A DNA stretch of 64,000 nucleotides, from assembly GCA_043812495.1 (NCBI GenBank), contig JBDRMG010000016.1:66137-130136 (forward strand), given 5' to 3'. The position numbers and the translations under genes are program-made. Positions 563 through 60,020 of the stretch are shown in pieces (positions within the stretch are counted from its first letter, which is position 1; each line of letters starts with the position of its first letter). This DNA comes from Candidatus Omnitrophota bacterium. Lineage in GTDB: Bacteria; Omnitrophota; Gorgyraeia; Zapsychrales; JBDRMG01. Under the pieces are notes generated by a model, which was not told the DNA's origin, made no database searches, and worked only from the letters and a program-made list of their open reading frames with translations.

Positions 563-687
563 GAACTCCTTTCAATGAGCCCGCCATTGATTCAGTGGCG
601 GGCGATTGACCCCGCACCTTTTATTCATTCAAACTTTTTTAAGTCGTGCGATTTACAAATATCTGAATAAGAAAAAGGTGCGGGGTA
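563..687. repeat. Composite palindromic intergenic repeat made of an A hairpin and a B palindrome. The A module is CCCGCCATTGATTCAGTGGCGGG (580-602). The B module is an ~80-bp imperfect palindrome, ACCCCGCACCTTTT...AAAAGGTGCGGGGT (608-686).
   Basis: Both inverted repeats can be read directly in the sequence. The same modules recur at 17382-17462, 36252-36284 and 59652-59695. Confidence 0.6.
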
Positions 688-7624: not shown

Positions 7625-7652
7625 TTTGCGTCCTTTCAATGATTCTCTCCTG

Positions 7653-12708: not shown

Positions 12709-15700
12709 TTATTTCAAATAGACATCAATACGGTCGGCCTTATTGTCGCGTATATCATTGGCAAAAGGCGAGGGGATAAAACCGGAAGATATTGTGACGG
12801 GGTCGCGGTGATCGGCGTACGCAATAACAATACGCTCAATCGACGCTTTGTTGTCGCCGAACGTATCCCGACGCTTGGGATTATGATAAACCACCAAGGT
12901 CGAGCCGAGAAAATTAAAAGCATAGGTATTTTTGGGAAGGACGATTTCCCGCTGAAGGCGATTTTTATCAAAATAAATTGTCTTTGTTTCTTGTTTTGTG
13001 AATAGCCACTTGGGCAATACCGGTTTAAACGCTAGTTCAAGATTTCCTTTCGGATCCAAGAAAAATGGAGCATCTCCCACATTCATCAAAAGCCAAATAT
13101 GCAGCCATTCGGCGGTGGTTCCGCTCAATCGTGCTACAAATCCACGGCCATGAAGACTTGCGTCTTCGTGGGCGCTGCTGACGATAAAGGAGGAACTCTC
13201 CAAAATACTGCGGCCGTATTTCTTCGGATCCATAAAAGGCACAAGAGTATATTTAAAATTCTTATAAAACTCGTCATACAATCCGAATTTGAGCAATTCA
13301 AGAAGGAATTTGTTCTCCATATGCATCCAGATCGATTGGTTCTCAAGCCAGCCCGCCGGAAAAACACTGGCCCGCCCGATCTCGGCTGATTCGCGGGATA
13401 AATCGTCATTGACGCGGTACATCTTGAGTTTTTTATCAAACAGAGGGCTGTGGCGGACGTTTTGATAAAGAGTGCGCGCCTTGATCTGGTCGTTCTGCAC
13501 TCTCAGGGCATGGACAAATCCTTCCAAGAAAAGAGGCAAAGCTTTTTTCTGGAAATTCAACGGGACAATATATGCGAGGCCGTCGGGATTAACCTTGTCC
13601 AATGTTTCATAATCTGTGATTTCATGGATAAAATAGGTCACGCACAAGCCATGCTTATTTTGGGCCAAGGCAATGGCTTTATCCGTTTTTTGGATCACCA
13701 GCTGCAAGAACCGGTCAATGACCGAAACAGGCATGGACCGTTCGACCCCGTCAATGCCTTGTTCCGTGCGGCGTCGATAATGTTCCTTGATTTCGTTGGA
13801 GTGACGCCAATAGACCAGCGGATCTTTTTGCGTAGTCAACAAATCATTGAGCCCGGAAATAAAACTCAAAAGTTCGTCATACATCCGCACTTCGGTGTGT
13901 CCATCCAGTTTCATGTCTTTGAATGAATGGCGGATGAACTGACAAAGCCTTTTCAGCTCAAATGTCTCGGAAATGGATGACCCCATCAGGCCCGGTAAAC
14001 CGTTGAGGGCGTCATACCAATTGGGCTTGTCCGCTTCCATTTCGATACCGACTCCGCTGGGATCAAGGGTGGCGGCTTTATTCGCCACAAGACACAAGAG
14101 CTTAACGAGGAGGCACGTAAAATAAACCGGGCCCTGCCCGCCATTGGTCCTGAGCTTATGGTCAAAAGCCTCCGTTACGACTTCATGACCTTTATCCACG
14201 ACAGAATGATATTGCCGGGGACCGTGATTCGTCAAAACATACCTTTGGTCCCGGGGCAGCACATGATGGGTATTGTGATAAAAGCTGAAGGCTTTTTTGT
14301 TAAGAAGCAGATTTCGTCTTTCTTCCGGATAAAGAGCGAGAAAGCGCTCGATCAAATCGAGATTATAAGTCCAGTGATCGGTCCAAAATCCTTCGCCGTG
14401 TTCAGCCAGTTCATGTTTATGGCAATAGCTCAAGAGTTCCTTCAAGAACTTCTGAGGTGACGTTTTGAGTTTTATATCATAATCATCGATTGACTTCAAA
14501 AGCGCCCCAGGGCAAAAACCTACTTTCAGAAGTTCTTTGACAAAATTTTTTCCTCGGCCAAGGATAAATTGATTAACGATGGCCTCGATCCTTGCCGGAC
14601 TGTCCAAAGAGAAAACATTCCCCTTGATGACTAATGGATTATACCCGTCGGCTTGAATCAGGCTCAGGAAATTCACGATATGGTTGTCTTTGACATCACG
14701 GTTAAACCACACGTCGTTGCGTCTGTTTTGGTTGACATCACGGTAATTTCCGTTGCCTTGAGAAAGATAGGTGGGATTCAGAATAAAATTATTGTAGTCG
14801 CGCTCAAGATCTCCGTGCTTACGGCTGTAGACATTAAAAACAATTTTTCCCTCTTGGGTCTCAAGCGCAAGAGGCAAGCCTCCGCGCATAACGTTATCCA
14901 AAAAGGTCTGTTGGCAATATTGATTGAAGGCCGCTGAGGAGCTTGACGTAAAGCAGTTATTTTTGATCTCTTGGATAAGGCGTTGATTTTCTTTGGCTTT
15001 ATGATCAATAAAATTTTTATTTCTTGCGCGCGCCAGTATTTTCTGAACCATAGCCACGGAATGCGTATGGCCAAACAGCGAAGTGATTCTTTCTTTCTTT
15101 TTTCCAGGCAAAGCAAAAGAGGCAAATGTCATGGCGCACAAAGAACGATTGCTGCTTTTTTGTTTCAAGGGAACTTTGAAAAGATTCCGGCCCATAAAAG
15201 CTTCGGGCACAAGAAAGTCGGTTGAATTGCCAAACACACTCAGAGGATCAATGATCGGATTCAACGGTTTTGGTTTCCGGCCTTCGTGCAAAAGACTAAA
15301 ATAAAAATGGCCTTCGCTGATGGATTTGACCTGCGGCCGGTCCGAAATAACCACTTTGAGATTATAATAGGGGGCTTTGTTTTCGAGATTCAAAACCTGT
15401 TTCCATGCTTCAACGGTGTGCGAAATATCTTTTTGCAGGCGGTCGATTAAACCGAACGGAATAATCTCCGGCATCCCGTCAATGACCTCAAGCGTTACTC
15501 TTTTTGTTCCAACATTTTCGATGGTGACATCCCGCACCAAAGCGGCATAGGGCTCTTCAGGTAAGGTAAAATAATTGACACGAACCACCAGCCCCAAGGT
15601 CACATTGGTCTCTTCAATCGTTAAATCATGGGAGGTGATCATCATCCGCTGCTTACGCTTAAATGCCCCGTTGGAAAGATTGTTCTGAAATGGTTCGTAA

Positions 15701-15996
15701 AGAATGGGTTTTCGCCCCTTTTTGATTTTAATGAATGTCCGGAAACCCTGTAAAGACGTTAACCGGTAAGCCTTGTTGGCCGGTTGGAATTCCATAATCG
15801 CCTTGTCTTTTCCTTCAACGCCGAAGCTAGCGATGCACTGGCCGCGGTTGACCGTGAACACCCACATGGGGATGCCCCAAAGACCGGCGATGCCCGGGAA
15901 GAAATTGCTGAAGGGCTCGGCATCATTATAATTCTCAATGATAAACCGGCCTTGCTCATCAAGATAATAGGATACGTTTTTTGCTTTATTCTTCAT
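12709..15996 (-). CDS. Large (1095 aa) GH94-like glycoside phosphorylase / six-hairpin glycosidase family protein (COG3459-like).
   Basis: The motifs GNGNYRDVNQNRR and FWTDHWTYNLD resemble the GFRDSNQD and DWND catalytic motifs of cellobiose/chitobiose phosphorylases. The assignment is tentative. Confidence 0.4.
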   Translation of the reverse strand: MKNKAKNVSYYLDEQGRFIIENYNDAEPFSNFFPGIAGLWGIPMWVFTVNRGQCIASFGVEGKDKAIMEFQPANKAYRLTSLQGFRTFIKIKKGRKPILYEPFQNNLSNGAFKRKQRMMITSHDLTIEETNVTLGLVVRVNYFTLPEEPYAALVRDVTIENVGTKRVTLEVIDGMPEIIPFGLIDRLQKDISHTVEAWKQVLNLENKAPYYNLKVVISDRPQVKSISEGHFYFSLLHEGRKPKPLNPIIDPLSVFGNSTDFLVPEAFMGRNLFKVPLKQKSSNRSLCAMTFASFALPGKKKERITSLFGHTHSVAMVQKILARARNKNFIDHKAKENQRLIQEIKNNCFTSSSSAAFNQYCQQTFLDNVMRGGLPLALETQEGKIVFNVYSRKHGDLERDYNNFILNPTYLSQGNGNYRDVNQNRRNDVWFNRDVKDNHIVNFLSLIQADGYNPLVIKGNVFSLDSPARIEAIVNQFILGRGKNFVKELLKVGFCPGALLKSIDDYDIKLKTSPQKFLKELLSYCHKHELAEHGEGFWTDHWTYNLDLIERFLALYPEERRNLLLNKKAFSFYHNTHHVLPRDQRYVLTNHGPRQYHSVVDKGHEVVTEAFDHKLRTNGGQGPVYFTCLLVKLLCLVANKAATLDPSGVGIEMEADKPNWYDALNGLPGLMGSSISETFELKRLCQFIRHSFKDMKLDGHTEVRMYDELLSFISGLNDLLTTQKDPLVYWRHSNEIKEHYRRRTEQGIDGVERSMPVSVIDRFLQLVIQKTDKAIALAQNKHGLCVTYFIHEITDYETLDKVNPDGLAYIVPLNFQKKALPLFLEGFVHALRVQNDQIKARTLYQNVRHSPLFDKKLKMYRVNDDLSRESAEIGRASVFPAGWLENQSIWMHMENKFLLELLKFGLYDEFYKNFKYTLVPFMDPKKYGRSILESSSFIVSSAHEDASLHGRGFVARLSGTTAEWLHIWLLMNVGDAPFFLDPKGNLELAFKPVLPKWLFTKQETKTIYFDKNRLQREIVLPKNTYAFNFLGSTLVVYHNPKRRDTFGDNKASIERIVIAYADHRDPVTISSGFIPSPFANDIRDNKADRIDVYLK

Positions 15997-16858: not shown

Positions 16859-17308
16859 TTACATCTGGGTGAGGATCTGTTTGACAAGATCGCTGACTGT
16901 TTTGCCATCGGCCCGACCAGCGGTCTTGGATGTCACGATTTTCATGACTTTGCCCATATCTTTGATGGATGTGGCGCCGGCTTCCTGGATCGCTTCTTCA
17001 ACAATTTTTTTCAATTCTTCTTTGGGCATTTCCGGAGGCAAATAACTCTTAAGAATCGCCATTTCATTTTTTTCTTTTTCGACCAAATCCTGCCGTCCCC
17101 CTTTTTCAAACTGTTCAATACCTTCTTGTCTTTGCTTCACAAGCTTTTTGAGGACGGGCAAGCACTCGGAGTCATCCAGTTTGTCCTTCTTTTTCTCAAT
17201 CAGGACGTTCTTGAGCTGGGCTCTCAAAAAACTCAAGGTTGAACTCCTTAAAGTATCTTTGTCTTTCATCGCCTGTTTGTAATCCGCTGTGATTTTTTCC
17301 TCGAGCAT
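16859..17308 (-). CDS. GatB/YqeY domain protein.
   Basis: Roughly 149 aa (MLEEKITADYKQAMKDKD...GKTVSDLVKQIL) typical of the YqeY family. An AAGGAG Shine-Dalgarno lies upstream of the ATG at 17308. Confidence 0.8.
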   Translation of the reverse strand: MLEEKITADYKQAMKDKDTLRSSTLSFLRAQLKNVLIEKKKDKLDDSECLPVLKKLVKQRQEGIEQFEKGGRQDLVEKEKNEMAILKSYLPPEMPKEELKKIVEEAIQEAGATSIKDMGKVMKIVTSKTAGRADGKTVSDLVKQILTQM

Positions 17309-17316
17309 GATTTTCT

Positions 17317-17462
17317 CCTTCAATGAATGCCGAACTTATGGAGCGAGTGAAACGAGCGAACATAAGTTCGTGCATGAATTGAACCCCGCACCTTTTATTT
17401 ATTCAAACATTTTAAAGACGCACGTCTTCAAGGTATTTGAATGAGAAAAAAGGTGCGGGGTC
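17317..17462. repeat. Intergenic repeat made of a C-type hairpin (17317-17370; stem CGAACTTATG / CATAAGTTCG) plus a B-type ~80-bp palindrome (17382-17462).
   Basis: The inverted repeats were read directly. The B arm ACCCCGCACCTTTT / AAAAGGTGCGGGGT is shared with 608-686 and 59681-59695. Confidence 0.6.
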
Positions 17463-17533
17463 TAAGTCGGCCGCAGACTTACGTCGCTATCGCTCCGTAA
17501 GTTTTGGCCTCCTAAGACCTCCTTATGCGAATA

Positions 17534-17755
17534 TTAAATTTCAATTATCTTAATTGTTTTACGTCTTGATTTCAATCCTTTTATCATTTCTATGCGGCTT
17601 TTGGGTACATGAAATTCCTGCGCGAGAAGCTCGCACACGAGCTTATTGGCCTTTCCATCCTGAGCCGGCGCCGTGCAATATACTTTAAACCCATCGTGTT
17701 CTTTTTTGATAAGATTTTTCTTAGCACCGGCAATAACTTTAATATCTATCTGCAC
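17534..17755 (-). CDS. DUF167/YggU-family small protein, probably with a GTG start.
   Basis: The product reads VQIDIKVIAGAKKN...DGKANKLVCELLA. The GTG start lies 2 nt after the upstream gene's stop. Confidence 0.55.
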   Translation of the reverse strand: MQIDIKVIAGAKKNLIKKEHDGFKVYCTAPAQDGKANKLVCELLAQEFHVPKSRIEMIKGLKSRRKTIKIIEI

Positions 17756-20156: not shown

Positions 20157-20306
20157 CCCCCTTCAATGACGACACAGCTTATGGAGTCCGCCATTGTTTC
20201 TGTGTCTGTGGCGGACGACATAAGTTGTTTGTCGGAATTGAATCCTTGACAATTTTTGAAATATGGGTGGATATCGCAAGCAACCGAATATCAAAAATTG
20301 TCAAGG
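20157..20306. repeat. C-type hairpin repeat (20157-20235) followed by a perfect 16-bp inverted repeat, CCTTGACAATTTTTGA ... TCAAAAATTGTCAAGG (20244-20306, 31-bp spacer).
   Basis: Read directly from the sequence. The repeat lies in the PilZ gene 5' region and contains TTGACA on both strands. Confidence 0.6.
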
Positions 20307-20568
20307 GTTGCCTGCCTTCAAACTTTCAAGAACTAAAAAATAATTACTATATCGTTAGGGACAAGAAAACAGCTCTGTCTTTAGAGCTGTTTAATTGCTA
20401 AAGAATCATTTGTGCCACAAAATTAAATCTTAATATATTCACCCACGGGCCCCTATTCTTAAGGTAAGTGTACTATGAAAAAGGCAAGAAAACAAGGGTT
20501 TTGCTTTAATCACTAATATTAGTATATGTAACAATTTTTTGAGGAATTTTACAATAAAAAGAAGAAAT

Positions 20569-23580: not shown

Positions 23581-23905
23581 GACGATAAAGGCAAACCCGT
23601 TGTGAAACGGGGGCCCCGGCTTCGCCAAATATTTAACATGTTTGGCTTCGCCGGGCCCGGCATAGCTGAATGCGAAAGCAATTCAGCGAAGCCGGGGCAA
23701 AGCCAAGGGTCCTAATCAAATTTAAACAGGACAGCCTGGCTACCGAATCAAGAACGTTTTGACGATAAACCCTATATAAGGGTCCGGCGTAGCTAAACGC
23801 GAAAGCTTTTTAGCGAAGCCGGAGGCTAACTCGCTGTAAAGCGAGGGCGCAAAGTCAAGGGTCCTATGATGAGGGACGGCCTGGCTGCCGAATCAAAACA
23901 AACGG
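23581..23905 (+). ncRNA. Candidate structured RNA or cis-regulatory leader. Two tandem ~180/145-nt units each begin with GACGATAAA and contain a conserved hairpin, CCGGC-RTAGCT..GCGAAAGC..AGC-GAAGCCGG.
   Basis: The direct repeat runs 23581-23760 and 23761-23905. The inner stem differs between the two copies by compensatory changes (GCTGAAT/ATTCAGC versus GCTAAA/TTTAGC). A plus-strand intrinsic terminator follows. Confidence 0.35.
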
Positions 23906-23953: not shown

Positions 23954-23993
23954 TTGGGCAGCCCCAAGAAACACAAAAAGGAGGTTGGTTAAA

Positions 23994-24920
23994 ATGAGAA
24001 AACACGCAGTCATAACTTTTTTATTTATCGCTTTATTTGTGATGGGAACAACAGTCGCAGCTTTGGCAGGAACAGGCGGCTATACAAAGAATTCGAGCAG
24101 CGGTGGTGCCAGTGGTAATGCCGACATTGTTCCTACTGGTGTTTGTGGTGACGCGGATAACAATGGCGGAATAGACATCGATGACATGATCCTTGTCTAC
24201 GCGTATATTTTTGCCGGTGGCGAAGCGCCTTCATTCTATCTTCAAGCTGACGCGACGGGCGATGATGCGGTAGACATTGATGACTTTCTAAGATTACAAA
24301 ATTACATATTTGGTCAAGGGGAAGCGCCTGCATGTCACAAGTATGTCAGCTGCCTCGATTACAACGGAAATGGAAGAGTCAATACAAAAGACTTGGAAGT
24401 CCTGATAGCCTATATTTTTCAGGGCGGCGATCTGCCGGCTGGCGGCGATGCCACCGGAGACGGCGTGATTGACGTCGATGACTATGCGCAGGTCTTGATC
24501 CCTTACCTTTCCGGCACAAAACTTTTACCACCTTTGTGCGGAAGCAGGGCATTTTACCCTTGCTTGGATGCTACCAATGACGGTCAATCAAGAGAAGATG
24601 ATGTGGAAGCGATCATCAATGCAATTTTCAATGGTCAACCGCTTCCACCAAAAGAGCGCGCAGATTGTACCGGTGATGGCATTGTAGATATTGATGATGT
24701 GAGCTTTGCTATTGACTTTCACTACAATAATGGTCCAGAGCCAGTATGCTCATCGACAGGATTCCTAACACCATCTTCTGTTGAATCCTATTGCGGTGAT
24801 GGCATTTGTAATGGTGCCGAAACATGCGCAACTTGCTCAATGGACTGCGGCACATGTCCTGCTCCAGAGCCAACACCATCTGCCTCGCCTTCTACAACAA
24901 CCAGTACTATGCTTAGATAA
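23994..24920 (+). CDS. Secreted protein with six dockerin-type-I-like calcium-binding repeats and a Cys-rich Pro/Thr/Ser C-terminus.
   Basis: A signal peptide (MRKHAVITFLFIALFVMGTTVAALA) is followed by DADNNGGIDIDD, DATGDDAVDIDD, DYNGNGRVNTKD, DATGDGVIDVDD, DATNDGQSREDD and DCTGDGIVDIDD loops, each followed by an aliphatic helix. An AGGAGG Shine-Dalgarno lies upstream. Confidence 0.7.
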   Translation: MRKHAVITFLFIALFVMGTTVAALAGTGGYTKNSSSGGASGNADIVPTGVCGDADNNGGIDIDDMILVYAYIFAGGEAPSFYLQADATGDDAVDIDDFLRLQNYIFGQGEAPACHKYVSCLDYNGNGRVNTKDLEVLIAYIFQGGDLPAGGDATGDGVIDVDDYAQVLIPYLSGTKLLPPLCGSRAFYPCLDATNDGQSREDDVEAIINAIFNGQPLPPKERADCTGDGIVDIDDVSFAIDFHYNNGPEPVCSSTGFLTPSSVESYCGDGICNGAETCATCSMDCGTCPAPEPTPSASPSTTTSTMLR

Positions 24921-24947
24921 GATCGCAACCATGACACCTAAGCTTAA

Positions 24948-24990
24948 GGGCCCCCGCCATTGAATCAATGGCGGGGGCCCTTTCCTTTTA
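24948..24990 (+). terminator. Intrinsic terminator hairpin (GGGCCCCCGCCATTGAATCAATGGCGGGGGCCC followed by a T-rich run); this is an A-module variant.
   Basis: A perfect palindrome lies 28 nt after the stop and is followed by TTTCCTTTT. Confidence 0.65.
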
Positions 24991-32615: not shown

Positions 32616-35486
32616 TCAGTGGACACTAAGCATCTTGCAATACTTATTAAAATTTACATCCGTATTCTTCAATAATGCCCAACCTGTTATGCTCACGCCT
32701 GGCAAATCGGCAGGAGGCAAGCTGCCGGTCAAATAGTCCGATTCCCATTTAAATTCCGATGGAATAGAGCCAATATCGAAAGGGAACTTCCCTACCGCCC
32801 CTCCACCGCACCAGTCATTGACTTCATTGCAATATTCTGAACATCCTCGGCAGGATTTCCAATAGAAATCTAAAAAATAGTAAGTATCATAATGTTGATA
32901 AAATCCCTGCGTATCGGGGCCATTCAAACATTCCTCTTGCGTGCAACTTCGGTTATAGTCACTCAAGAGCCATCCATAATCATAAAATTCCATAGGGTCA
33001 GTCGGATCGCTGGGATCATCCTGAAAGAGAGAATTCGGTAATTTAAATAATGTGCCGGTAAATGTCTTGCCATAATGTTTATAATCTTCATTTTTGTCTT
33101 CCCAATCATTCTTCCAGTTCCAAAGCTCAAGAGTGGTGTTATAAAAAAAGTTTCCTAAATCAGCCGCGTTATCTCCAATAATAGAAATCCTGTATACTTC
33201 ATCCTGCATAACCCTATTGGGCATAGGATCAGCCGTTCCTTCTTTGTGGGCGTTTCGCCATGCCGAATGGACCGGTTCTTCTTCATTTTCCTCAGTATCT
33301 GGGTCGTCTATGTAAAAAATATCCGGGTGATTTCCGAGCTCCGGTATTTCTTTGGGAAAATCAAAATCGCGCGAAAGAGGAAAAAATTTTTCCCTCGCTA
33401 TAACAGAGGCGGGGACATAATTCTCCGTATTTATGCTCCCTATGGCATAGGCGTTTCCCTCTGTAACAACAGTTAATCCGCCATCCATTAATTCTTGCGC
33501 ATGAGAAAGACCTACATCCCAATCCGAGTAAGCCACATTCTCTTTGGGTGCCGGTATTACTCCTTGGCCAATGGCTTTATTTAAATTCTCAATATCAACA
33601 AGAACAAGCGAATGCCACAGCGAACTCATTGTATTATAGAAACCTTCCTTTTTAAAAATGACCACGTCTGCAGGTGAACCGTCAACATCAATGGTGACCT
33701 TGATTTCTCCGTATTCATCCGGCACACGTTCAAAAATTTCTGTCTCACCGGTAATTTTCACCTTATAATTTCCAACGGTCCCTCCCGTACTATCTAAAAG
33801 ATTTTCTTTCAGATAATAAAGTTTTTGAAAATGGCGTCCTTCAAAATTTCCGGAACTGTTAAAGCTAGCGCGATCTACCGTGTTTTCAATAAGAATTCCT
33901 TCGTCTTTAGCCATGTTTCTGAGTCTTTTGGCGCTCACGATAGGGCTTGCGATGCTTGTCGCGCCTGTAGAGCTATCGAGTAAAACGCCTTGGAGAACAC
34001 CGCCTTCAGTGGTCTCTAGAAACTCGGCCCAATCATCGGCTTGATATTCTGTATTTAAGAATTTGACTTCTGGGCAAAAACGTTCATCGGTGCATGTTGT
34101 TTGAATATCATCCGGATTATAATCATTGGGCGGGAAAAAAGAGTAAGCTTTAGTGTAATTATCCGTGTAGGTCTTGCGTCCCATGATACCGTCTTGTGCG
34201 TATCTTGGCCACCGCCATTCTGTGTCCAATCGATTCGGTATTTTGACTGTTGTCGGAGTATCTGGATCATACGGTGTTATGAGAGCAGGATCATAAAGAT
34301 TACTTCCCGTCGGCGTATTATACATATACTTTTCGGGATAGAGGATGGGATCAAGGGGGCGCCACGTATAACCATCTTCCACCACCCCAATTTTATCCCG
34401 ACAGCCAGCGAATGTGCCGGTCGTTCCTTTTTCGCACAATAGACCACCTCGATCTCCGGATAAATAGCCATTATATTCATTGATCCATTTATTAGGATCA
34501 TAATATTTTAGACGAGGATCTGAGGCGTTGACATCAAACATGCAATCATCCGGGTCTAGCCAAGAAGCCGAACAAGCACCGGTTCTCCAATTTGTTGTTC
34601 CGTCAGAACGATCAATGCCATATAATTCAGCCCAGGTTTTATAGCTGACGTGTGGTTCTCGCGTAAAGTAATTATCCGCGACTGTTTTGTTATTCTCATC
34701 CACGCACATACCTGTCCAGCCATCGCGCGCGCAGGAGATAGATCCTGCCGCCGCAGGAACTGCATCAAGATCAACCATCGGAGTGAAATAAAAATTATCC
34801 ATTTTTTGCTTAAAATATTTTGCCGTGCTCAATTGTGAGATATTTTTAATTTGAGTACCTCCAACAAACGTTATATTCTCATTCGAATGAATCCTTCCTC
34901 CTGCAGCATCATAGACTGTTACGCCATCAAAATTTATGCCAGCTTCCGGATAGAACATAAAATAATCATAGAGAGAACCCGTTGAGACCCTTGCCGCTAA
35001 AAGTCTTTCTTTGTTTCCGCTTATTCCTTTGATTAAAACAATCTTGTTTTTGGTATCAACGCAATCGTATGTTGCGCAAGGGATCGCGTCGTTATAGATT
35101 TTCGCCACGAATTGTATTGGTTGGTCTTCTTGAGACGCGTAGCCCTCCTCTGTTAACTCATTGAGGTCTTCCAGCACGATAACCGGAGCTTGGGCGCCGG
35201 TAACTTCAGAATAATGGATGAGTTGCTCTGTATTAATATCAACAAAGTGTGTAACCCAGTTATCGGAATCGGGAGAGGAATTTTTCAATTCCTCAATGAC
35301 ATACTCCAGGCCGCGTTCAGCCGCATAAAGAGCCTTCATGGAATTATCATCGTGGCCAACCGATATTTTCTCGCCAATGGATTTTAAAAATTGCGCTCCG
35401 GATAAACCAAGAAAAATGACTGTCGCCGCAATTACGGTGAGAATAAGCCCTTGGCCTTTCTGATTTCTTAATGTGTTAAGTGTCAT
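32616..35486 (-). CDS. Large secreted PilX-like / putative pilus tip-associated protein (956 aa).
   Basis: The N-terminus (NQKGQGLILTVIAATVIFLGLSGAQF) resembles the PilX N-terminal pseudopilin-like helix. The rest is Asp/Gly/Tyr/Trp-rich with no known catalytic motif. A GGAG Shine-Dalgarno precedes the ATG at 35486. Confidence 0.45.
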   Translation of the reverse strand: MTLNTLRNQKGQGLILTVIAATVIFLGLSGAQFLKSIGEKISVGHDDNSMKALYAAERGLEYVIEELKNSSPDSDNWVTHFVDINTEQLIHYSEVTGAQAPVIVLEDLNELTEEGYASQEDQPIQFVAKIYNDAIPCATYDCVDTKNKIVLIKGISGNKERLLAARVSTGSLYDYFMFYPEAGINFDGVTVYDAAGGRIHSNENITFVGGTQIKNISQLSTAKYFKQKMDNFYFTPMVDLDAVPAAAGSISCARDGWTGMCVDENNKTVADNYFTREPHVSYKTWAELYGIDRSDGTTNWRTGACSASWLDPDDCMFDVNASDPRLKYYDPNKWINEYNGYLSGDRGGLLCEKGTTGTFAGCRDKIGVVEDGYTWRPLDPILYPEKYMYNTPTGSNLYDPALITPYDPDTPTTVKIPNRLDTEWRWPRYAQDGIMGRKTYTDNYTKAYSFFPPNDYNPDDIQTTCTDERFCPEVKFLNTEYQADDWAEFLETTEGGVLQGVLLDSSTGATSIASPIVSAKRLRNMAKDEGILIENTVDRASFNSSGNFEGRHFQKLYYLKENLLDSTGGTVGNYKVKITGETEIFERVPDEYGEIKVTIDVDGSPADVVIFKKEGFYNTMSSLWHSLVLVDIENLNKAIGQGVIPAPKENVAYSDWDVGLSHAQELMDGGLTVVTEGNAYAIGSINTENYVPASVIAREKFFPLSRDFDFPKEIPELGNHPDIFYIDDPDTEENEEEPVHSAWRNAHKEGTADPMPNRVMQDEVYRISIIGDNAADLGNFFYNTTLELWNWKNDWEDKNEDYKHYGKTFTGTLFKLPNSLFQDDPSDPTDPMEFYDYGWLLSDYNRSCTQEECLNGPDTQGFYQHYDTYYFLDFYWKSCRGCSEYCNEVNDWCGGGAVGKFPFDIGSIPSEFKWESDYLTGSLPPADLPGVSITGWALLKNTDVNFNKYCKMLSVH

Positions 35487-35522
35487 GCTCTTCTCCAAAT
35501 CTTGTTTTAGGTAATATCATAC

Positions 35523-35737
35523 GTGTCCAAATTAGCGCAATCTAAGCTTCTCAATTCTATTGATAATTAAGGGGTTACGACAATTTTCAGCTTTTTGAGA
35601 TATGAAATCGCAATTTGGACAGCATGAGCATATTTTGAACAATAAGATTGCCATATGGATTCACATCCGACGGTAATTCTAGGCTCAAATTACGACGGCT
35701 GAACGTATTTACCTGTGTCCAAGCTAATTTGGACAGC
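35523..35737. promoter_or_regulatory. Cluster of TGTCCAA/TTGGACA palindromic sites in the 5' region of the PilX-like gene. The sites are GTGTCCAAATTAGCGCAAT (35523-35541), ATCGCAATTTGGACAGC (35606-35622, inverted) and GTGTCCAAGCTAATTTGGACAGC (35715-35737).
   Basis: Read directly. Sites 2 and 3 also share a 22-nt direct repeat, AATTTGGACAGCxTGAG. A 13-bp perfect inverted repeat, AATTAACCTATCC..GGATAGGTTAATT, is at 35784-35821. Confidence 0.35.
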
Positions 35738-36130
35738 TATGAGGTAATATAAAATATTGTACACTACTTTTCTTAATTAATAAATAATTAACCTATCCCT
35801 TTTTGAAGGATAGGTTAATTGGAAGTGTATCAAAATCCCAGCCGAGATCACATGCCTCACGACTGGCTTTTGGTTGGCAACTGGTTACCCTATCCTAGAA
35901 GGGTCCTTTTAGCTTTGCCGCTCCGCAAGACTACGGAACAACCTTTATCAACCAAAAAAAGTATAGCACTTATTCTAACTTATTCAATAAGCGTAAGTTA
36001 AAAAAGATGCTTTTTAAGAAAACGTTTTCTTATTCACAATCAATGAATGCTAACTCTTAGCATAGCAATAGATTGTAATTTATAGCAAAATAGACAAATT
36101 TCCGGAAAGATTTAATTCTTAATTTATGAC

Positions 36131-36284
36131 TCATTTCAATGAGACCATGACTTATGGAGCAAAGCGCCCGCCTTTTTATTAATATTTTAGCGAGGTCTCG
36201 TCAATTCGATTTTATCGAATTGACGGAACATAAGTCATAAGGTCGAATTGACCCAGCCCGCCATTGATTCAGTGGCGGGCTGGG
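36131..36284. repeat. Intergenic repeat: a C-type hairpin (36131-36247; stem GACCATGACTTATGG / CATAAGTCATAAGGTC) plus an A-type hairpin (36252-36284; CCCAGCCCGCCATTGATTCAGTGGCGGGCTGGG).
   Basis: Read directly. An internal TTGACGAGACCTCGC segment is shared with the copy at 57446-57550. Confidence 0.55.
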
Positions 36285-36332: not shown

Positions 36333-37226
36333 TTAATTGCTTAAATTGCGAAGGCGCACAACTGAGGAAAGGCTAAAAAGAGTTTGATTGCCGAAAAGAT
36401 TGGGCCTGGATAATTCCAAAAACACTTGGACGGTCTCAGGAGGCGTCGTGGCGCTGCCCCCTGTCCCCGGGCCAGGAGTTCCAAGAAAATAAATGGCGCT
36501 GATATCCGTAGCGATAACACGGACCGAATACCTCGAAGGATTGGCCAAAAAAGGAAAGGGATTATACTGGGAGATATCAGGAGCTGTTTGCGCAAAGGCG
36601 AGGCCGGGACGAAAGAGCTCTTCCAGCCAATTATTAAAAAATGCGCAATCGCCGCCCGGCGGAGGAGCCGGGCAATTAGCTGGAGTTTCTCTGGGAGGTT
36701 CGCAAATACCATCTCCGCACACAATTTGATTTCTTGTCAACCGAATTAATCGATTGGCATTGCTTCCAAATGGACCCAGGGTATGGGGAACCATATAAAT
36801 AATTCTTTCATCATCATACATGACTTCGCGTCCGTCATAGCCCCATTTGATAGGATACGCTGATCCTACTAAAGGCTTAAATATGCTTCCCTGGATATCG
36901 CAAGCAGTCGTCCCGCAGCTTGTCGCGACCGGAACGCGGAACTCCACCGCTCCGCCGACACAATACTGGTCAGGACACTTGTAGATTTTAACTTGCGCCG
37001 ATGCTGACTGGGCAAGCTCAGCAGTGACGCGCTCCATGGCCAGTCGCGCATGCTGCTGCAAATCGATTTGGGTGGAGCTGCGAAAATAGGTATTGCGGAT
37101 GACGACAATCGTTCCAATCAGGCCGATACCGATAAAAATAGATATGGCCAAGACCGTCATGATCTCGACAAGCGTAAATCCCCGTCGATTGAATTTTATA
37201 AATCCTTTATTGAAAAATAAACGCAT
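36333..37226 (-). CDS. Type IV pilin-like / pseudopilin protein (prepilin-type N-terminal cleavage/methylation domain).
   Basis: NRRGFTLVEIMTVLAISIFIGIGL is a class III signal peptide with the G|FTLVE motif. The C-terminal part is Cys-rich. Confidence 0.65.
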   Translation of the reverse strand: MRLFFNKGFIKFNRRGFTLVEIMTVLAISIFIGIGLIGTIVVIRNTYFRSSTQIDLQQHARLAMERVTAELAQSASAQVKIYKCPDQYCVGGAVEFRVPVATSCGTTACDIQGSIFKPLVGSAYPIKWGYDGREVMYDDERIIYMVPHTLGPFGSNANRLIRLTRNQIVCGDGICEPPRETPANCPAPPPGGDCAFFNNWLEELFRPGLAFAQTAPDISQYNPFPFLANPSRYSVRVIATDISAIYFLGTPGPGTGGSATTPPETVQVFLELSRPNLFGNQTLFSLSSVVRLRNLSN

Positions 37227-43859: not shown

Positions 43860-44820
43860 TTAGGATTTCTGTTGTTGGGCCAGCGCCTGGATTCTCTTGA
43901 GCATATTCGGATGTGTGCTCATCGCCTCCATCATGCGGTCACCAAGATTCAAAACCACTTTTTTATTTCGCAAATTAGCCAGTTCATAAGAATCGATGGT
44001 TCCGCTGCGATCCAAATCAATCTGGGCTAAGTCGCGTATTTCATTCATGGCCTGCGAGGGGTCATTTAAGAAAAATGCCTTAAAACCTTCGGCTTCTTTA
44101 ATAACACCTTTACCCATACGTGCTGAACCGTAAACGAGCTTATAGAGCGCTGTGGCTAAACTGGAAGGTTTATTGCCCAAGGCAATGGAGCCCCGATCAG
44201 CAAAGTATTCTCGAATGCGAGAAGCATAAAGAACCAATAAGTTGGTAATAAAATAGAAAACGAGAGCCACAAGCCCGATCAAGGCCGCTTGCCCGCGGTC
44301 TCTCCGGCCTCCGCCAAAAAAGAGTAAATGCCACGCCAGACGATACATAATAATCGGAATCACGGATAAAAGCGTGATGGTCAATACATCACGGTTTTTT
44401 ATATGGCTGAGCTCGTGGCCGATCACCGCCTTCAATTCATCTTCATCCAGAAGCTGCATAATGCCCTGGGTCACACAAACACGACCATCAGATATCGAAC
44501 GGCCAAAAGCAAAGGCATTGGGAATCGGCATTTGCGCGATGCAGACTCTGGGCATGGGAATGCGCGCTTTTGCGGCCTGGTCTTCGACAATTTTATAAAG
44601 AGATGGGTTCTCTTCTCTTTTGATATAGCGAACGCGCATCGACCATTCGATCAATTTCGGTCCCACCATATATTGAATGAACATAAACCCAAAAGCAATA
44701 AGCAGATAAATGTAAAAATTCCCAATGCCCATATAGGTCCCGACCGCAACCATCGCGGCATAGACAATGGCAAACAAAAGTGTCACTAAAAGCATCATTC
44801 TTAAATGTAGGAAAAACATT
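43860..44820 (-). CDS. htpX: M48-family zinc metalloprotease, HtpX homologue, with a C-terminal EF-hand-like loop.
   Basis: HELSHIKNRD is the HExxH motif. Four transmembrane helices. DLDRSGTIDSYE fits the 12-residue EF-hand loop consensus. The true start is the ATG at 44820 (Shine-Dalgarno GAGAGGAG); the longer ORF reads into a repeat. Confidence 0.8.
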
Positions 44821-44825
44821 TTTTG

Positions 44826-44910
44826 TCTCCTCTCAATGAGGCCCGCACTTATGGACCCCGCTGCCCCGCATTTTGCGGGGCAAGAAGCGGGGAAACATAA
44901 CTGTGCGGCC
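44826..44910. repeat. C-type hairpin repeat immediately upstream of the htpX start. The outer stem is GCCCGCACTTATGG / CATAACTGTGCGGCC and the inner stem is CCCCGC..GCGGGG.
   Basis: Read directly. The GCGGGCCTCATTGAGAGGAG tail resembles the tail of the A module. Confidence 0.5.
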
Positions 44911-44973
44911 GAATTAAACAAATTCAACTATAATTCTTTTCCTTTATCAAGTGAACTCAATAGTTCTAACAAA

Positions 44974-47838: not shown

Positions 47839-49617
47839 TTAGTCAAAACAGCAAATCCTATTTTTGCCTTCTCGCTTGGCCTGGTAAAGCGACTGGTCTG
47901 CCTTCATGACAAAATCATGCCGATCCATTTGGCCGGCGTAGCGGGCCGCACCGATACTGATAGTAATTTTTCGTCTTAAGTTAAGACCCTCAATAGATTT
48001 CTTTACTTTTTCTGCAACTAGTTTTGCTTGCGGAATATCTGTTTCAGGTAAAATAGCCGCAAACTCATCACCCGCATAACGGCAAAGGATATCAACATTA
48101 CGCATACTTCGCTTCATCATCTGACTTGCGCGAGAAAGCAGAATATCACCTTCCGGATGGCCATACTGATCGTTATACTCTTTAAAACCATCGATATCGA
48201 TCATCAACAGACACAAAGGCCTCGGGTAACGTCTTGAGCGCTCAATCTCCTGCTGAAGCGTCTTAATAAACTGACGATGATTAAAAAGACTTGTCAGGGA
48301 ATCCGTTGTTGAGAGGAATTCCAATTCGCGATAATAATAGGCATTTTCAATCGCAATGGCGGCCTGACGGACAATGCTGCAGAGTATTTTTAAATCCACT
48401 TCTGTAAAAATAGGATCCTCTTTGCTGTCCTTATCCGACACATTGACAACACCCACAAGCTTCGCATGCAGTTTAATGGGAACGCACAAGAACGATTTGC
48501 CCTTATAACTGGATCGATTCTTCCGCGCGATCAGCAGTTCTGATTCAATATCATTGACTAATAGGGGCTCTCCTTTCTGGGCCACAATGCCAGCAATAGG
48601 ATCCCCGACTTTTATTCTTGTTTCTTTGATGATCTTTTTTTTCAAACCCTTTGCGCCCTTAATCAAAAGCTCCTGGGAATCATCATCGACAAGCATCAAA
48701 GAACACTTTTGCGCTTCCAATATTTGAGTTGCCTTTTCAATGACAAAGTCTACCAGCTGATTAAGTTCAAGAATCGAGCTGATCTTCTGGTCAATGTTTA
48801 AAACTTGTTCCATTTTCTTTCTTTCAAATTCTAAATCTTCCTGCAACACCTTGAGTCTACTTTCTATTTCTTTTCGTTCTGTAATATCCTGAAATATTTC
48901 AAGAACGGCATTTTTGCCCTCATAAAGCATGCCGGTGTGTGTAACGAGAAATGTCCGTCCTCCCAGGACGTCCTCCGTTTCAATGGACGCCACTTCGCCG
49001 ATTTTGATATTTTTTCTAAGCGGGCACAAGAGGCATTGGGCTTTATCGTCTTTGTAAAGATCCCAGCATCTTTTTCCAATGGCCTTTTTTCCGTAAATCT
49101 TCTTTAATTTCTCACACAAGAAAAGAATTTTACCCTCTTGGTCAACAATTTCCATGCCGAAAGGAATCGTATTGATCAGGGTCTGGTTAAACTCGCTAAT
49201 GCGCCGAATGGCTTCTTCGGCTTGTTTTTGTTGGGTGATGTCGCGGATAACTCCTTCTGTTCCGATGATGCGGCCGGTTATATTTTTAACAAGATTACTG
49301 GTGACGGAGAGAATGATTTCGCGGCCATCTTTTCTTTTGTTGACAACTTCATAATCTTTAACAAATCCTTTCTTCATAATTTCCCCTAAGAATAACTCGC
49401 GGTCATTGGGATTGCTATAGAGTTCTTGAGCAAGATTCAAGCCAAGAACCTCTTTCTTGCTTTTATAACCCATAATTTCCACGTAGGCCTGATTGATAAA
49501 AATAAGATTGCCCAAGACATCGGCCATATAAACGCCGCTTTTTAAGGATTCAAGAAGGTTCTGAAAGGGTCTTTCTGCTTCTCTTTGAATTTTCTGAGGT
49601 TTTCTGGATTCGATCAT
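47839..49617 (-). CDS. PAS-PAS-GAF-GGDEF diguanylate cyclase with an AGDEF active-site variant and an RxxD I-site.
   Basis: RNVDILCRYAGDEFAAIL is the GGDEF-domain core. Upstream GAF and two PAS-like segments. Confidence 0.8.
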   Translation of the reverse strand: MIESRKPQKIQREAERPFQNLLESLKSGVYMADVLGNLIFINQAYVEIMGYKSKKEVLGLNLAQELYSNPNDRELFLGEIMKKGFVKDYEVVNKRKDGREIILSVTSNLVKNITGRIIGTEGVIRDITQQKQAEEAIRRISEFNQTLINTIPFGMEIVDQEGKILFLCEKLKKIYGKKAIGKRCWDLYKDDKAQCLLCPLRKNIKIGEVASIETEDVLGGRTFLVTHTGMLYEGKNAVLEIFQDITERKEIESRLKVLQEDLEFERKKMEQVLNIDQKISSILELNQLVDFVIEKATQILEAQKCSLMLVDDDSQELLIKGAKGLKKKIIKETRIKVGDPIAGIVAQKGEPLLVNDIESELLIARKNRSSYKGKSFLCVPIKLHAKLVGVVNVSDKDSKEDPIFTEVDLKILCSIVRQAAIAIENAYYYRELEFLSTTDSLTSLFNHRQFIKTLQQEIERSRRYPRPLCLLMIDIDGFKEYNDQYGHPEGDILLSRASQMMKRSMRNVDILCRYAGDEFAAILPETDIPQAKLVAEKVKKSIEGLNLRRKITISIGAARYAGQMDRHDFVMKADQSLYQAKREGKNRICCFD

Positions 49618-57252: not shown

Positions 57253-57438
57253 CTATTGCTTAATTCCAAATTTTCTTAAGATATTCATCATCAAGCACCA
57301 ATTGGTAAAGGCTGATTGAAAAAGATTGAAACCCACAAAGGCCGTAAACCATAACCATCGGATATCTATAAAATACGCCAAGGCCACGCTGATTAAAATA
57401 AATGTCCCTGCGATACCCCGCAATGATCTCTCAAGCAT
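57253..57438 (-). CDS. DUF2892/YgaP-like small inner-membrane protein.
   Basis: MLERSLRGIAGTFILISVALAYF... two-helix architecture. Start at ATG 57438, with a GGAGG Shine-Dalgarno. Confidence 0.55.
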   Translation of the reverse strand: MLERSLRGIAGTFILISVALAYFIDIRWLWFTAFVGFNLFQSAFTNWCLMMNILRKFGIKQ

Positions 57439-57445
57439 TTTATTG

Positions 57446-57550
57446 CCTCCTTCAATGAACACATGATTTATGGAACGAAGTGTCCGCCAATTGCATTAAA
57501 GCAATTGGCGAGATCTCGTCAAAACCTTTGATTTTGACGGAACATAAATT
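57446..57550. repeat. C-type hairpin repeat immediately upstream of the DUF2892 start, with internal hairpins GTCAAAATCAAAGGTTTTGAC and CGCCAATTGC-TTTAATGCAATTGGCG.
   Basis: Read directly. The TTATGTTCCGTCAA and TTGACGAGAYCTCGC segments are shared with 36131-36247. Confidence 0.5.
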
Positions 57551-57559
57551 TCTATGTGA

Positions 57560-58837
57560 TTAGAAATTATACCGTACACGCATATAAACGTTTTTATTTT
57601 TTCGAAATCCGCCGAATTCCGTGAAATAATCCTCGCCCCACGGAAGATTGGCTCCGCATGCCACATTCCATTGGTCCGTGACTTTATAGTCAACCGATGG
57701 GCGGACATACCCGTCATGGTCACTTGGTGAATAAAACGTAAACAAGGACGCCGTCACCGTTTGATTCTTAAATAATTTGGTGATCCGATTGGTCAATAAA
57801 TGACGGAATTCGTCAAAACGATAATCGGCGGCCAAAAGATTGTTTTCATAATCATCATAATTCATTTTTTGCTCAAACAGATATTGAAATCCGATTTTCC
57901 AGTCATTTCCCAAATCTTTGGTGTAGCCTGCGAGAACTTTCAACATTGAATTTTCAACAAGACGATTTGTCCCGTCGGTATCTTCCCGAGAATATTGATA
58001 GCCGGTCTCGATATTTCCAATCCCGCCGGCAAACTGCCCGCGGACACTCGCTCCGTAAATATCCAGGCGTTCATAGAAAAGTTCGCGTTTGGCCTCATCG
58101 TGATAACTGCGGGGATTTTTATCAAAACCCCTGAAGTAATAAAAGGCCAACTCATTACCCGCAAGATTCCGGTAAATGCGCAAGGCATATTCATTATTCG
58201 ACAGTCGAAAAGAAGGTGAAATAATGCGCCGTTCGGATTCTCGTCCGGCAATGCCCTGCTCGAAACTGTCAAAGAAAGATACGCGGTCCCCTTCGGCAAT
58301 GGTGTTGGGCGTAAAGTATGGAATGACGACAAAATCGATGTTCGCGAATTTCGGATACAAAGACATTTTAACCGCATCAGAGGGTTTTTTCAAATACTCA
58401 TCTTCGCGTCCGATGTAAAAGGAAACATAATCTTTCGGAAACATATCATTAATAAAAAGATAATCTCCCGTTCCCCATGTCAGGACTTGGCGACCGAGTT
58501 TTACATCCATAAAATCAAAGGGTGTCCATGAGAGGTTGGCTTCGCGGAGTTCAAAATCCGTGCTGGCATTGTTGTATTCATCGACGATGGAATCCCCTTT
58601 AACATTGAAGATTCCGCCTTTTTGGGCAAAATAATTCTCCCCTTCAAAGAAATATTGGTACTTCAGCTGCAGCCTTTGTTCCAGATAATTAAAGTTATCT
58701 CTCTTGGTGGTATCATCACTAACTTTCACGCCATAACCCAATTCCGCAAAACCGTGGATATCCGGAAATTCAGCCAAAGCACAAGTCGGCAAAGCCAAGA
58801 AGATGAAAATGCTCGCAAGAGCAGCAGTTCGATTCAT
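57560..58837 (-). CDS. Outer-membrane beta-barrel protein (hypothetical, porin-like).
   Basis: A signal peptide, alternating amphipathic beta-strand pattern, and a C-terminal aromatic residue (..RVRYNF). Confidence 0.5.
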   Translation of the reverse strand: MNRTAALASIFIFLALPTCALAEFPDIHGFAELGYGVKVSDDTTKRDNFNYLEQRLQLKYQYFFEGENYFAQKGGIFNVKGDSIVDEYNNASTDFELREANLSWTPFDFMDVKLGRQVLTWGTGDYLFINDMFPKDYVSFYIGREDEYLKKPSDAVKMSLYPKFANIDFVVIPYFTPNTIAEGDRVSFFDSFEQGIAGRESERRIISPSFRLSNNEYALRIYRNLAGNELAFYYFRGFDKNPRSYHDEAKRELFYERLDIYGASVRGQFAGGIGNIETGYQYSREDTDGTNRLVENSMLKVLAGYTKDLGNDWKIGFQYLFEQKMNYDDYENNLLAADYRFDEFRHLLTNRITKLFKNQTVTASLFTFYSPSDHDGYVRPSVDYKVTDQWNVACGANLPWGEDYFTEFGGFRKNKNVYMRVRYNF

Positions 58838-59640: not shown

Positions 59641-59695
59641 CTTTCAATGAGCCCGCCATTGATTCAGTGGCGGGCGAATTGACCCCGCACCTTTT
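59641..59695. repeat. Truncated A plus B repeat copy: the A hairpin (59652-59674) and the B left arm GACCCCGCACCTTTT (59681-59695), with no right arm.
   Basis: Near-identical to 563-620, including the CTCATTGAAAGGAG tail that supplies the Shine-Dalgarno for the LolA-like gene. Confidence 0.55.
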
Positions 59696-60020
59696 ATCTA
59701 TTCAAACATATTATTGACTTTTTTTTTATTAAAGGAACGGTGGAAGTCAATATAAGGTCTTCTTTCTCGTATAGAGAAAATATTATTGACTGTTCCATTA
59801 ATAAGGAAAAGACCAATAGGGTGAAAGATTTGTCCTAACTTATTGGAAAAGAAGAAAATAGTTAAATTGAAAGAATGGCCCTGAGGTTCTTTCATGCACC
59901 CTAAATAAGAAAGAACCTTTAAATTATATCTCTTTTTAAGAGAAAAATCAATGAACTCTCGCAAGCAGAATGACACAAATATGGATTGGAATGTCTCAAT
60001 CACCGTCGAAGCTAGAAAAA

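Follow-up and report, generated by a model that had tools for sequence, protein, structure and literature searches.

Imperfect palindromes that are transcribed from intergenic regions and measure at most about 127 bp, with a sequence conserved across fairly distant species and a copy number that varies greatly between lineages, are known from enterobacteria as ERIC or IRU elements (enterobacterial repetitive intergenic consensus; intergenic repeat unit). The present study concerns a short repeated hairpin found in a window of 64,000 nucleotides from a Candidatus Omnitrophota bacterium (the whole stretch analysed; assembly GCA_043812495.1, contig JBDRMG010000016.1, positions 66,137 to 130,136), five copies of which had been noticed in a sequence-only reading under the name of C-type hairpins. 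This hairpin is the gene-proximal module (class I) of a repeat family, palindromic, mosaic and interspersed, that was found here only in Candidatus Omnitrophota. Compared with it, ERIC is longer, inserts at TA, is not flush with translation starts, belongs to another phylum and has an unrelated sequence.

In the RNase III hairpins of phage T7 and of cells, as in mitochondrial tRNA punctuation, a cleaved structure lying between RNAs sets the mature ends and leaves minimal leaders; T7 RNase III sites are typically helices of about 20 bp interrupted by an internal loop. By analogy, the Omnitrophota element may work like such processing hairpins or like tRNA punctuation, with the difference that it is a multi-copy mobile or homogenised repeat, whereas RNase III and punctuation sites are unique.

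The best functional analogy for class I is that of the Correia elements (Correia repeat enclosed elements, CREE), which lie mostly 5' of genes and are co-transcribed as hairpins that RNase III binds or cleaves, expression being altered as a result (PMC2649163), and which offer a documented precedent for processing. Both are short non-coding palindromes present in about a hundred or more copies, placed 5' of genes and variable between lineages (PMC2649163). However, CREE have features of their own, namely 26-bp terminal inverted repeats around a core, a fixed length (either about 105 bp or about 155 bp), a duplication of the target, an integration host factor (IHF) site and sigma-70 promoters at their ends, and they are known from one genus, Neisseria (PMC2649163). 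The Omnitrophota element shares no sequence with them, has no Correia repeat, shows no consistent target duplication around 14 composites, and occurs in a different taxon; it is instead characterized by covarying stems with internal boxes, a free apex and two orientation classes with different outer helices, and it spans at least 42 species.

Another likeness is to repetitive extragenic palindromic (REP) sequences and to their composites, the bacterial interspersed mosaic elements (BIME) and the REP doublets forming hairpins (REPIN). These are extragenic imperfect palindromes with compensatory changes in their stems, arranged as inverted pairs in mosaics, located between co-directional genes where they are plausibly transcribed, and homogenised within genomes (PMC3733652). 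REP sequences are, however, only 20–40 bp long, bear an unpaired GTAG/CGTC tag and are predominantly downstream of genes, while those of the GTAG type are linked to RAYT, the REP-associated tyrosine transposases (PMC3733652). The Omnitrophota units measure 55–117 nt (39 nt in a short variant), end in TCAATTC/TCATTGA (class I) or in TAAGTTC/TCACTTA and similar sequences (class II), and show no GTAG/CGTC tag in the alignment. Class I lies upstream of genes, flush with the Shine–Dalgarno (SD) sequence, and class II at gene 3' ends; inverted I/II pairs do exist, but their units, unlike those of REP pairs, are not complementary to each other. Pfam revealed no transposase or integrase among the window genes (no search aimed at RAYT was made).

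The element resembles REP/BIME, ERIC and Correia elements in kind, without having their defining features. The family is not described in the Omnitrophota and REP literature that was searched, and it is apparently undescribed. What is new is, on the one hand, that its boxes are conserved within one phylum in no fewer than 42 species-level genomes and, on the other hand, the existence of two position-specific orientation classes with a nucleotide-exact abutment to stop codons, SD sequences, start codons and the 5' ends of stable RNAs.

Anatomy of the hairpin and its copies in the window

All five copies lie on the minus strand, which is the sense strand of the genes downstream of them. The exact pattern CCATAAR-N8-TCATTGA has five matches in the window, all on this strand, against 0.02 expected (100 shuffles), and a covariance model built mostly from the copies of other genomes recovers all five. 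They are genuine members of one repeated element, far above chance, as had been claimed from the sequence alone. Read on the gene strand, the element is composed of (T)TCAATTC, a 4-nt stem, a bulge of 1–3 nt (usually A), a 5-nt stem, YTTATGT and a variable apex, followed by CCATAAR, a 9-nt return arm, TCATTGA, (A)GGAGG, 5–8 nt and the ATG. The shared box YTTATGT/CCATAAG had been correctly recognized, but it had been taken for a terminal inverted repeat, whereas it is internal: the true hairpin reaches 16–18 nt beyond this 5' box, and it continues outward first as a variable, covarying 9-bp lower stem, which contains the bulge of 1–3 nt, then as an internal loop (TC/TC) and finally as the outer helix TCAAT/ATTGA. 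Because this outer helix closes the hairpin, the TCATTGA “tail” is the 3' strand of the hairpin base. The loci assigned to the copies likewise hold, but not their boundaries, which ignored the minus strand and omitted the 5' outer box TCAATTC. Between the conserved boxes, the apex is 18–70 nt long in the window copies and 15–44 nt long in the matches of the genome scan described below.

Copy 1, in front of yqeY (17320-17383; 70.2 bits with the covariance model, E=2.7e-16), reads T-TCAATTC-ATGC-A-CGAAC-TTATGT-apex-CCATAAG-TTCG-GCAT-TCATTGA and is followed by AGGAG (17319-17315) and by the ATG (17308-17306); its RNA fold (-23.1 kcal/mol) matches the model and leaves the SD unpaired. Copy 2, before the PilZ gene (20163-20242; 59.8 bits; fold of -31.2 kcal/mol, z=-3.8), has the lower stem CGAC-AA-ACAAC / GCTGT-GTCG and an apex hairpin CGTCCGCC...GGCGGAC, after which come AGGGGG and the ATG at 20148. 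Copy 3 (36136-36251; 55.1 bits) carries a 70-nt apex and, as already remarked, has no proper gene behind it, only a 25-codon open reading frame (ORF). Copy 4, before htpX (44833-44918; 45.1 bits; fold of -53 kcal/mol, z=-6.4), is followed by GAGGAG and the ATG at 44819. Finally, copy 5, before the gene of a YgaP-like (DUF2892) protein (57452-57564; 24.7 bits), is degenerate: its 5' flank is TCTAATC, which contains the stop codon TAA of the upstream gene (57562-57560), its long apex is common to copy 3, and the canonical outer stem is not recovered in its minimum free energy fold. In four window copies, SD and ATG are found 11–14 nt after the element. The identities of the downstream genes are confirmed, their products being YqeY, a protein with a PilZ domain, a protease (M48/HtpX; 100% identical to a protein annotated from a metagenome-assembled genome of Candidatus Omnitrophota) and a YgaP-like protein (DUF2892), and the spurious N-terminal ORF extensions suspected at the last two are borne out (43860-44927 and 57253-57462).

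The sequence-only reading had left room for TCATTGA plus SD being simply the general SD context of the organism. Among 52 window starts, however, this combination is present only at the element-bearing genes and at tsf; it always comes with the hairpin in the loci hit by the search pattern, and it occurs only twice in 80 orthologous htpX loci from metagenomes (63–71% identity, 362 kb). The TCATTGA tail is element-specific. As for the two starts where the tail was said to occur without a hairpin, tsf (Pfam EF_TS; ATG at 7624) does have TCATTGAAAGGA, with a solo TCATTGA before its SD (7636-7642, minus strand) in the 28-nt rpsB-tsf spacer and with neither hairpin nor TCAATTC box, but DUF368 has only TTTTGAAAGGAA. 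The solo tail of tsf is possibly a deletion derivative, the hairpin having been lost between TCA direct repeats. An extended SD interaction was also rejected at the level of the ribosome, since the 16S rRNA 3' end in one locus (L044; GGATCACCTCCTTTCTAAG) pairs with at most the last GA of TCATTGA.

Occurrence and covariation across Omnitrophota

The pattern TTATGT-N15-45-CCATAAR-N8-TCATTGA, scanned across 185,579 species-representative genomes, returned at least 102 loci. Among the matches listed, about 70 are structured, all of them from Omnitrophota metagenome-assembled genomes (some labelled Planctomycetia) and spanning at least 42 species-level genomes, while the matches listed in other phyla lack the complementary stem structure. 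The 5' box TCAATTC lies outside the search pattern and is yet present in 47/69 of the matches listed. The viral contigs of IMG/VR gave 19 pattern matches, of which the covariance model confirmed none. Known RNA families do not cover the element: in the whole window, a scan with Rfam 15 at gathering thresholds found only three tRNAs and two cyclic di-GMP-I (c-di-GMP-I) riboswitches, and a scan of 17280-17560 at E<=10 found only spurious miRNA-precursor matches far under threshold.

An alignment of 56 sequences and 19 pairs documents the covariation of the stems. Compensatory changes affect 9 of the 19 pairs, up to 26/56 sequences being altered on both sides, and broken pairs are almost nil. Cells of the alignment are paired in 98.9% of cases, against 87.0% in shuffles (0/500 reach the observed value) and 29–45% when the partner is slid, and double changes amount to 130 cells versus 31.8 in shuffles. 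In diverged copies, the outer helix and the TTATG/CATAA box covary too (TTACG/CGTAA, TTAGC/GCTAA), and one locus (L055) has two tandem copies that differ by one compensatory pair.

The mosaic and its abutment to gene landmarks

Across 66 Omnitrophota loci, the covariance model identifies 98 distinct sites. Class I (68 sites) ends in TCATTGA and faces the gene start; class II (19 sites) is on the opposite strand, 0–146 nt upstream of a class I copy, and its outer helices (TAAGT/ACTTA, TAAAT/ATTTA, CAAAT/ATTTG) covary with respect to the TCAAT/ATTGA of class I. Between the two stands hairpin A, which is GC-clamped (CCC...GGG) and of which several subtypes recur across species (CCCTTGACA…, CCCCGCACC…, CCCCCACACC…, CCCGAGCC…). 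The full unit runs from the upstream stop codon (often the TAA or TGA within the flank TAARTGA) through the inverted class II, the GC-clamped hairpin, one spacer base and class I to the downstream RNA. In many Omnitrophota, genes are thus delimited by a mosaic element that is structured, repeated and specific in its orientation. It is also portable and precedes unrelated genes, as the sequence-only reading had supposed, for 64 of the 68 downstream ORFs are singletons.

At the gene-proximal end, 43 copies have an SD, and in 38 of them it begins 0–2 nt past TCATTGA; a purine immediately follows TCATTGA in 67/67 copies. Thirteen further copies have no SD but an ATG at 0–2 nt. Such an SD-less start is that of trmD (L083), whose N-terminus, MEIDVLTIFPEMF, is genuine, and where a composite lies between rpsP and trmD in the cluster rpsP-trmD-rplS. 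Stable RNAs are approached as closely: the +1 position is at 0 nt from class I for tRNA-Glu (L055) and, in three species, for tRNA-Leu(UAA), the tmRNA of one locus (L085) starts 1 nt past the element, and an inverted copy abuts the 3' end of a tRNA-Leu at 0 nt (L096). At the distal end, a long co-directional ORF terminates at the flank TAARTGA in 10 of 20 class II copies (TAA 5, TGA 5). With both of its ends flush with functional landmarks, the mosaic fills the intergenic space completely. Two coding explanations were considered and rejected, namely a conserved upstream ORF (uORF) extending from the ATG of TTATGT to the TGA of TCATTGA, given that apex length modulo 3 is uniform (22, 23 and 24 copies) and that in-frame stops are common, and a reading-through of the upstream gene to this same TGA, given that the open stretches there are only 10–45 codons long.

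Some copies depart from this plan. In five loci (L019, L070, L017, L047 and L085), an extra hairpin (e.g., GGCCTTTGGCC) is located in the bulge of the class I 5' arm, which yields a three-way junction; the bulge is therefore a second permissive insertion point besides the apex. In the genome QZKA (L008, L045, L052), TCATTGA is followed not by an SD but by a repeated motif (GGTTAAGGTTTAGGCCAAGGCTTAGGC, GGTCGAGGCTAAGGCCGAG...), which suggests additional genome-specific repeat modules. A variant ending in TCATTAA is present between rplS and the RNase HII gene (L083, 2229-2285, minus strand), so that the ribosomal-protein cluster of this locus carries at least two such hairpins. As for empty frames, in which TCAATTC would be joined straight to TCATTGA, there was no convincing case.

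In the window itself, the covariance model finds three more relatives, i.e., one inverted diverged copy and two short-frame variants. The inverted copy belongs to class II (17462-17516, plus strand; 27.4 bits, E=1.3e-4), has a compensated TTACG/CGTAA box and lies 17 nt past the DUF167 stop codon. The 79-nt spacer that separates it from forward copy 1 corresponds to a GC-clamped A hairpin (17384-17461, an inverted repeat ACCCCGCACC...GGTGCGGGGT), and all modules of the mosaic (class II, A hairpin, class I) are present in the yqeY intergenic region. The same A module recurs as an inverted repeat at 609-686, where it precedes the short variant of metK (572-609, minus strand; 23.0 bits; Pfam S-AdoMet synthetase; GTG at 558), and partly at 59683-59700. 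The other short variant, before a LolA-like gene (59644-59682, minus strand; 32.6 bits, E=5e-6; Pfam LolA_like), reads TCAATTC-GCCCGCCAC-TGAATCA-ATGGCGGGC-TCATTGA, then AAGGAG and the ATG. A hairpins also stand beside copies 2 and 3, while there is none beside copies 4 and 5. That of copy 2 is an inverted repeat CCCTTGACAATTTTTGA...TCAAAAATTGTCAAGG (20243-20323), and its subtype is known from other species, in which the 3' arm “aatgtcaaggg” precedes class I (L007, L011, L014, L049, L064, L075). That of copy 3, CCCAGCCCGCCATTGA T TCAGTGGCGGGCTGGG (36252-36284), is an inverted repeat with 94% complementarity and abuts TCAATTC directly.

A perfect palindrome with 18-bp arms, AAGGGCCCCCGCCATTGA-T-TCAATGGCGGGGGCCCTT, lies between convergent genes at 24946-24982. 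Its CCGCCATTGA / TCAATGGCGG motif is common to both short variants (572-609 and 59644-59682), to the A hairpin at 36252-36284 and to the apex of copy 2. The palindrome is perhaps one more module of this mosaic. Regarding the surroundings, the two c-di-GMP-I riboswitch aptamers are arranged in tandem (23667-23892, plus strand; 54 and 35.8 bits) upstream of the gene of a dockerin-domain protein (23985-24920, plus strand), and the window encodes a GGDEF protein (47839-49617) besides the PilZ protein of copy 2. Downstream of copy 3 extends a 630-bp AT-rich stretch without any long ORF (35499-36130). This stretch and the gene of an N-terminal-methylation (pilin-like) protein (36333-37226) precede the ORF 32616-35498 (minus strand, 960 aa), which has no Pfam match, as is also the case for the ORF 12709-15996 (minus strand, 1095 aa).

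Transcribed punctuation, selfish repeat and other readings

The position of the element points to its being transcribed as a 5' leader or as an intercistronic spacer, and the reading that we tentatively favour is that of a transcribed leader or intercistronic hairpin acting as RNA punctuation, within a family that spreads at the DNA level, rather than that of a promoter. The near-perfect helix of about 20 bp would insulate and expose the SD, and it would protect or define RNA ends. Most plausibly, it would be the substrate of a double-strand-specific endonuclease of the RNase III type, the cleavage of which would release a short unstructured leader; this would account for usable SD-less ATGs at 0–2 nt from the helix and for the flush 5' ends of tRNAs and tmRNA. 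Processing of this type is favoured because an unprocessed RNA would be hard to use with an ATG, a tRNA or a tmRNA abutting a helix of about 20 bp. In the predicted RNA folds, copies 1, 2 and 4 adopt the modelled structure, and the SD is single-stranded. Moreover, -10-like hexamers were seen just upstream of the hairpin, i.e., TATAGT 9 nt before the htpX copy (promoter-like site 44955-44927) and TGGTAAAAT 11 nt before the TCAATTC box of the tmRNA copy, so that the hairpin would be transcribed as a 5' leader. The histogram of such hexamers upstream of the elements shows only a weak bump, at 10–19 nt. Among the two roles proposed from the sequence alone, leader or promoter, the first agrees with the position of the element and with the unpaired SD in the folds, while the second is unsupported, as detailed below.

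Concerning the DNA level, stems shared within genomes and a patchy presence at orthologous loci suggest that the family multiplies, is homogenised and is lost. Identical 9-nt stem signatures characterize 30% of within-genome pairs versus 2.3% of between-genome pairs. In the 80 htpX loci, the covariance model detects five elements, of which only one (L106) is directly upstream of htpX. The region before htpX is element-free in about 70 of 75 cases and consists of a short spacer, AAGGAGG, N6-8 and the ATG. As most of these orthologous loci are empty, the htpX copy of the window is a lineage-specific gain. The density of elements varies, with one in about 8 kb in the window and one in 72 kb in the htpX loci. 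A DUF2892 ortholog with 68% identity (L031) also has a class I copy, and a hairpin-less remnant, TTC-TCATTAA, follows an A hairpin in another locus (L105). Two arrangements of tRNA sequences are possible scars, left by insertion or duplication where class I ends on its 3' side. In L055 (4880-5236, minus strand), class I precedes GGGGCTACCA, 10 nt that repeat exactly the 3' end of the tRNA-Glu located 128 nt upstream. In L065 (1284-1551), a block made of tRNA-Gly(CCC), hairpin A and class I stands between the 5' and 3' fragments of another tRNA, and these fragments have complementary acceptor strands (GCGGGTG / CACCCGC). Direct repeats flanking 14 composites show no consistency; the isolated cases are AGGAG on both sides of the yqeY composite of the window and the 10-nt repeat of L055.

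Several observations weigh against the punctuation reading. Transcription start sites, cleavage and effects on stability are all inferred from sequence. The flush placement could result from genome compactness, native stop-to-SD spacers being only 2–10 nt long (htpX loci) and insertions being tolerated nowhere else, while the element is dispensable at htpX, since most related lineages have no copy there. Furthermore, the stems are about 97% Watson–Crick, with G·U versus A·C counts of 10 vs. 7 in class I and 4 vs. 4 in class II; used as a signal of selection on RNA, this strand test turned out uninformative or negative (no G·U excess), and, given that a constraint on RNA alone would normally allow G·U, this scarcity fits a DNA-level or both-strand constraint, or arm-to-arm conversion, at least as well. 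Finally, class II copies keep the asymmetry of their own strand, with the bulge on their own 5' arm, and thus inverted copies display the same asymmetry even though they are read differently in the sense RNA.

The same features of pairing and asymmetry, as well as the compact spacers, the homogenised stems, the patchiness at htpX with its range of densities and the possible scars of L055 and L065, speak for the main rival, to which inverted I/II pairs resembling REP dimers can be added (PMC3733652). According to it, we would be dealing with a purely selfish repeat of the REP/REPIN type or of the type of miniature inverted-repeat transposable elements (MITEs), devoid of host function. The copies would be non-autonomous DNA elements, multiplied by some enzyme or by gene conversion, and they would be flush with genes because other positions were lethal or deleted. 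We consider this rival rather unlikely, albeit far from negligible. Indeed, the boxes are kept in 42 species or more, which differ widely in GC content, whereas a REP or MITE family does not usually extend beyond one species or genus; there is no consistent target-site duplication and no transposase or integrase in the window. Orientation is strict, class I facing the gene start and class II, with its different outer helix, the gene end. In the tRNA-Leu leader, three species have the same 46 nt of stems and boxes, but their apex has diverged, been swapped or been inverted and the neighbouring non-coding DNA diverges, which points to purifying selection or conversion. Lastly, the element is tolerated 0–2 nt before SD-less starts (trmD), which is hard to conceive for a neutral passenger unless the RNA is processed.

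A genome-wide extension of the punctuation reading deserves less confidence and strikes us as distinctly improbable. Class I and class II would both be sites for a dedicated or RNase III-type nuclease cutting polycistronic transcripts at gene boundaries, hence generating mRNAs without untranslated regions (UTRs) and the 5' ends of tRNAs and tmRNA. The mRNAs so produced would be SD-first or near-leaderless, with the ATG 0–2 nt from the cut, and bacteria would thereby have a counterpart of the tRNA punctuation of mitochondria, borne by a self-propagating repeat.

Another possibility is that the conserved boxes (the TC/TC loop, the bulged A and UUAUGU/CCAUAAG) are recognized by a trans-acting factor, either a global RNA-binding regulator or a ligand, which would tune initiation at the SD or attenuation. 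The invariant unpaired positions (TC/TC loop, bulge and GU...CC borders of the apex) beside covarying stems, the fixed geometry with respect to the SD and the conservation of the tRNA leader across species would be expected in that case. Yet we give it little credit, as the downstream genes are unrelated and include tRNA and tmRNA genes, control of translation would be meaningless at gene 3' ends, which is where the inverted copies lie, the folds leave the SD accessible, orthologs are mostly without the element, and neither an Rfam family nor a signature of alternative folds was found. A gene-specific leader (riboswitch, ribosomal-protein leader or RNA thermometer) was rejected, considering that 64/68 downstream ORFs are singletons, that tRNA and tmRNA genes are concerned too, that the SD is unpaired and that there is no conserved uORF.

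A portable promoter, with or without the A hairpin and possibly in extruded form, would initiate transcription at the purine after TCATTGA. The invariance of this purine (67/67) and the exact ends at tRNA +1, at tmRNA -1 and at SD-less ATGs, the transcripts of which would then be near-leaderless, are in line with it, as is the failure to find a canonical sigma-70 promoter in the roughly 250 nt that precede the tRNA genes flanked by the element. We nevertheless deem it very unlikely. The conserved columns contain no -35/-10 sigma-70-type pair of hexamers, the spacing between boxes varies with the apex (18–70 nt in the window copies, 15–44 nt in the scan matches), the region from -12 to -7 relative to the proposed start is a variable stem, and promoter scans of the elements are at background level. 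The internal segment TTGACGAGAYCTCGC with its -35-like TTGACG, which had been noticed in two copies, is not a feature of the family but an insert in the apex of copies 3 and 5 of the window, absent from 182/182 fetched loci. Besides, canonical TATAAT promoters do occur in the phylum, the -10-like hexamers, where seen, are upstream of the hairpin, and one copy lies inside the rpsP-trmD-rplS cluster, which is normally a single operon.

In integrons, attC sites combine R''/R' boxes of consensus RYYYAAC / GTTRRRY with a single orientation, there is one site per promoterless cassette, and the integrase IntI is encoded nearby. That the element is a recombination site folded from single-stranded DNA in the manner of attC, or the end of an integrative element bounding gene cassettes, is scarcely credible, despite an architecture reminiscent of attC (outer helix, unpaired spacer, inner helix with extrahelical bases, variable terminal structure), precise junctions with the flanking genes, tRNA-end duplications at the class I boundary and an apex swapped or inverted at an otherwise identical locus, because TCAAT/ATTGA falls outside the attC consensus, both orientations occur as pairs, the flanking genes are housekeeping and syntenic (rpsP-trmD-rplS, tRNAs, metK) and the window has no integrase. 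ATTGAA(A)G also resembles what we take to be the common 3' handle of CRISPR (clustered regularly interspaced short palindromic) repeats, ATTGAAAG/C, a likeness not used as evidence.

Omnitrophota, a little-known phylum, comprise ultra-small bacteria that have not been cultivated, and hardly anything is known of their signals for gene expression. For annotation, the family matters at once, since with about one site per 8 kb in some genomes it creates false N-terminal ORF extensions, and since gene callers may doubt SD-less starts that appear genuine, as that of trmD. To our knowledge, having both ends of the mosaic on landmarks is a tighter arrangement than in REP, ERIC or Correia elements. If it is true that RNA ends coincide with the hairpins, this would be a new bacterial way to delimit transcripts; otherwise, the family would be a clean case of selfish palindromes that have persisted throughout a phylum with streamlined genomes.

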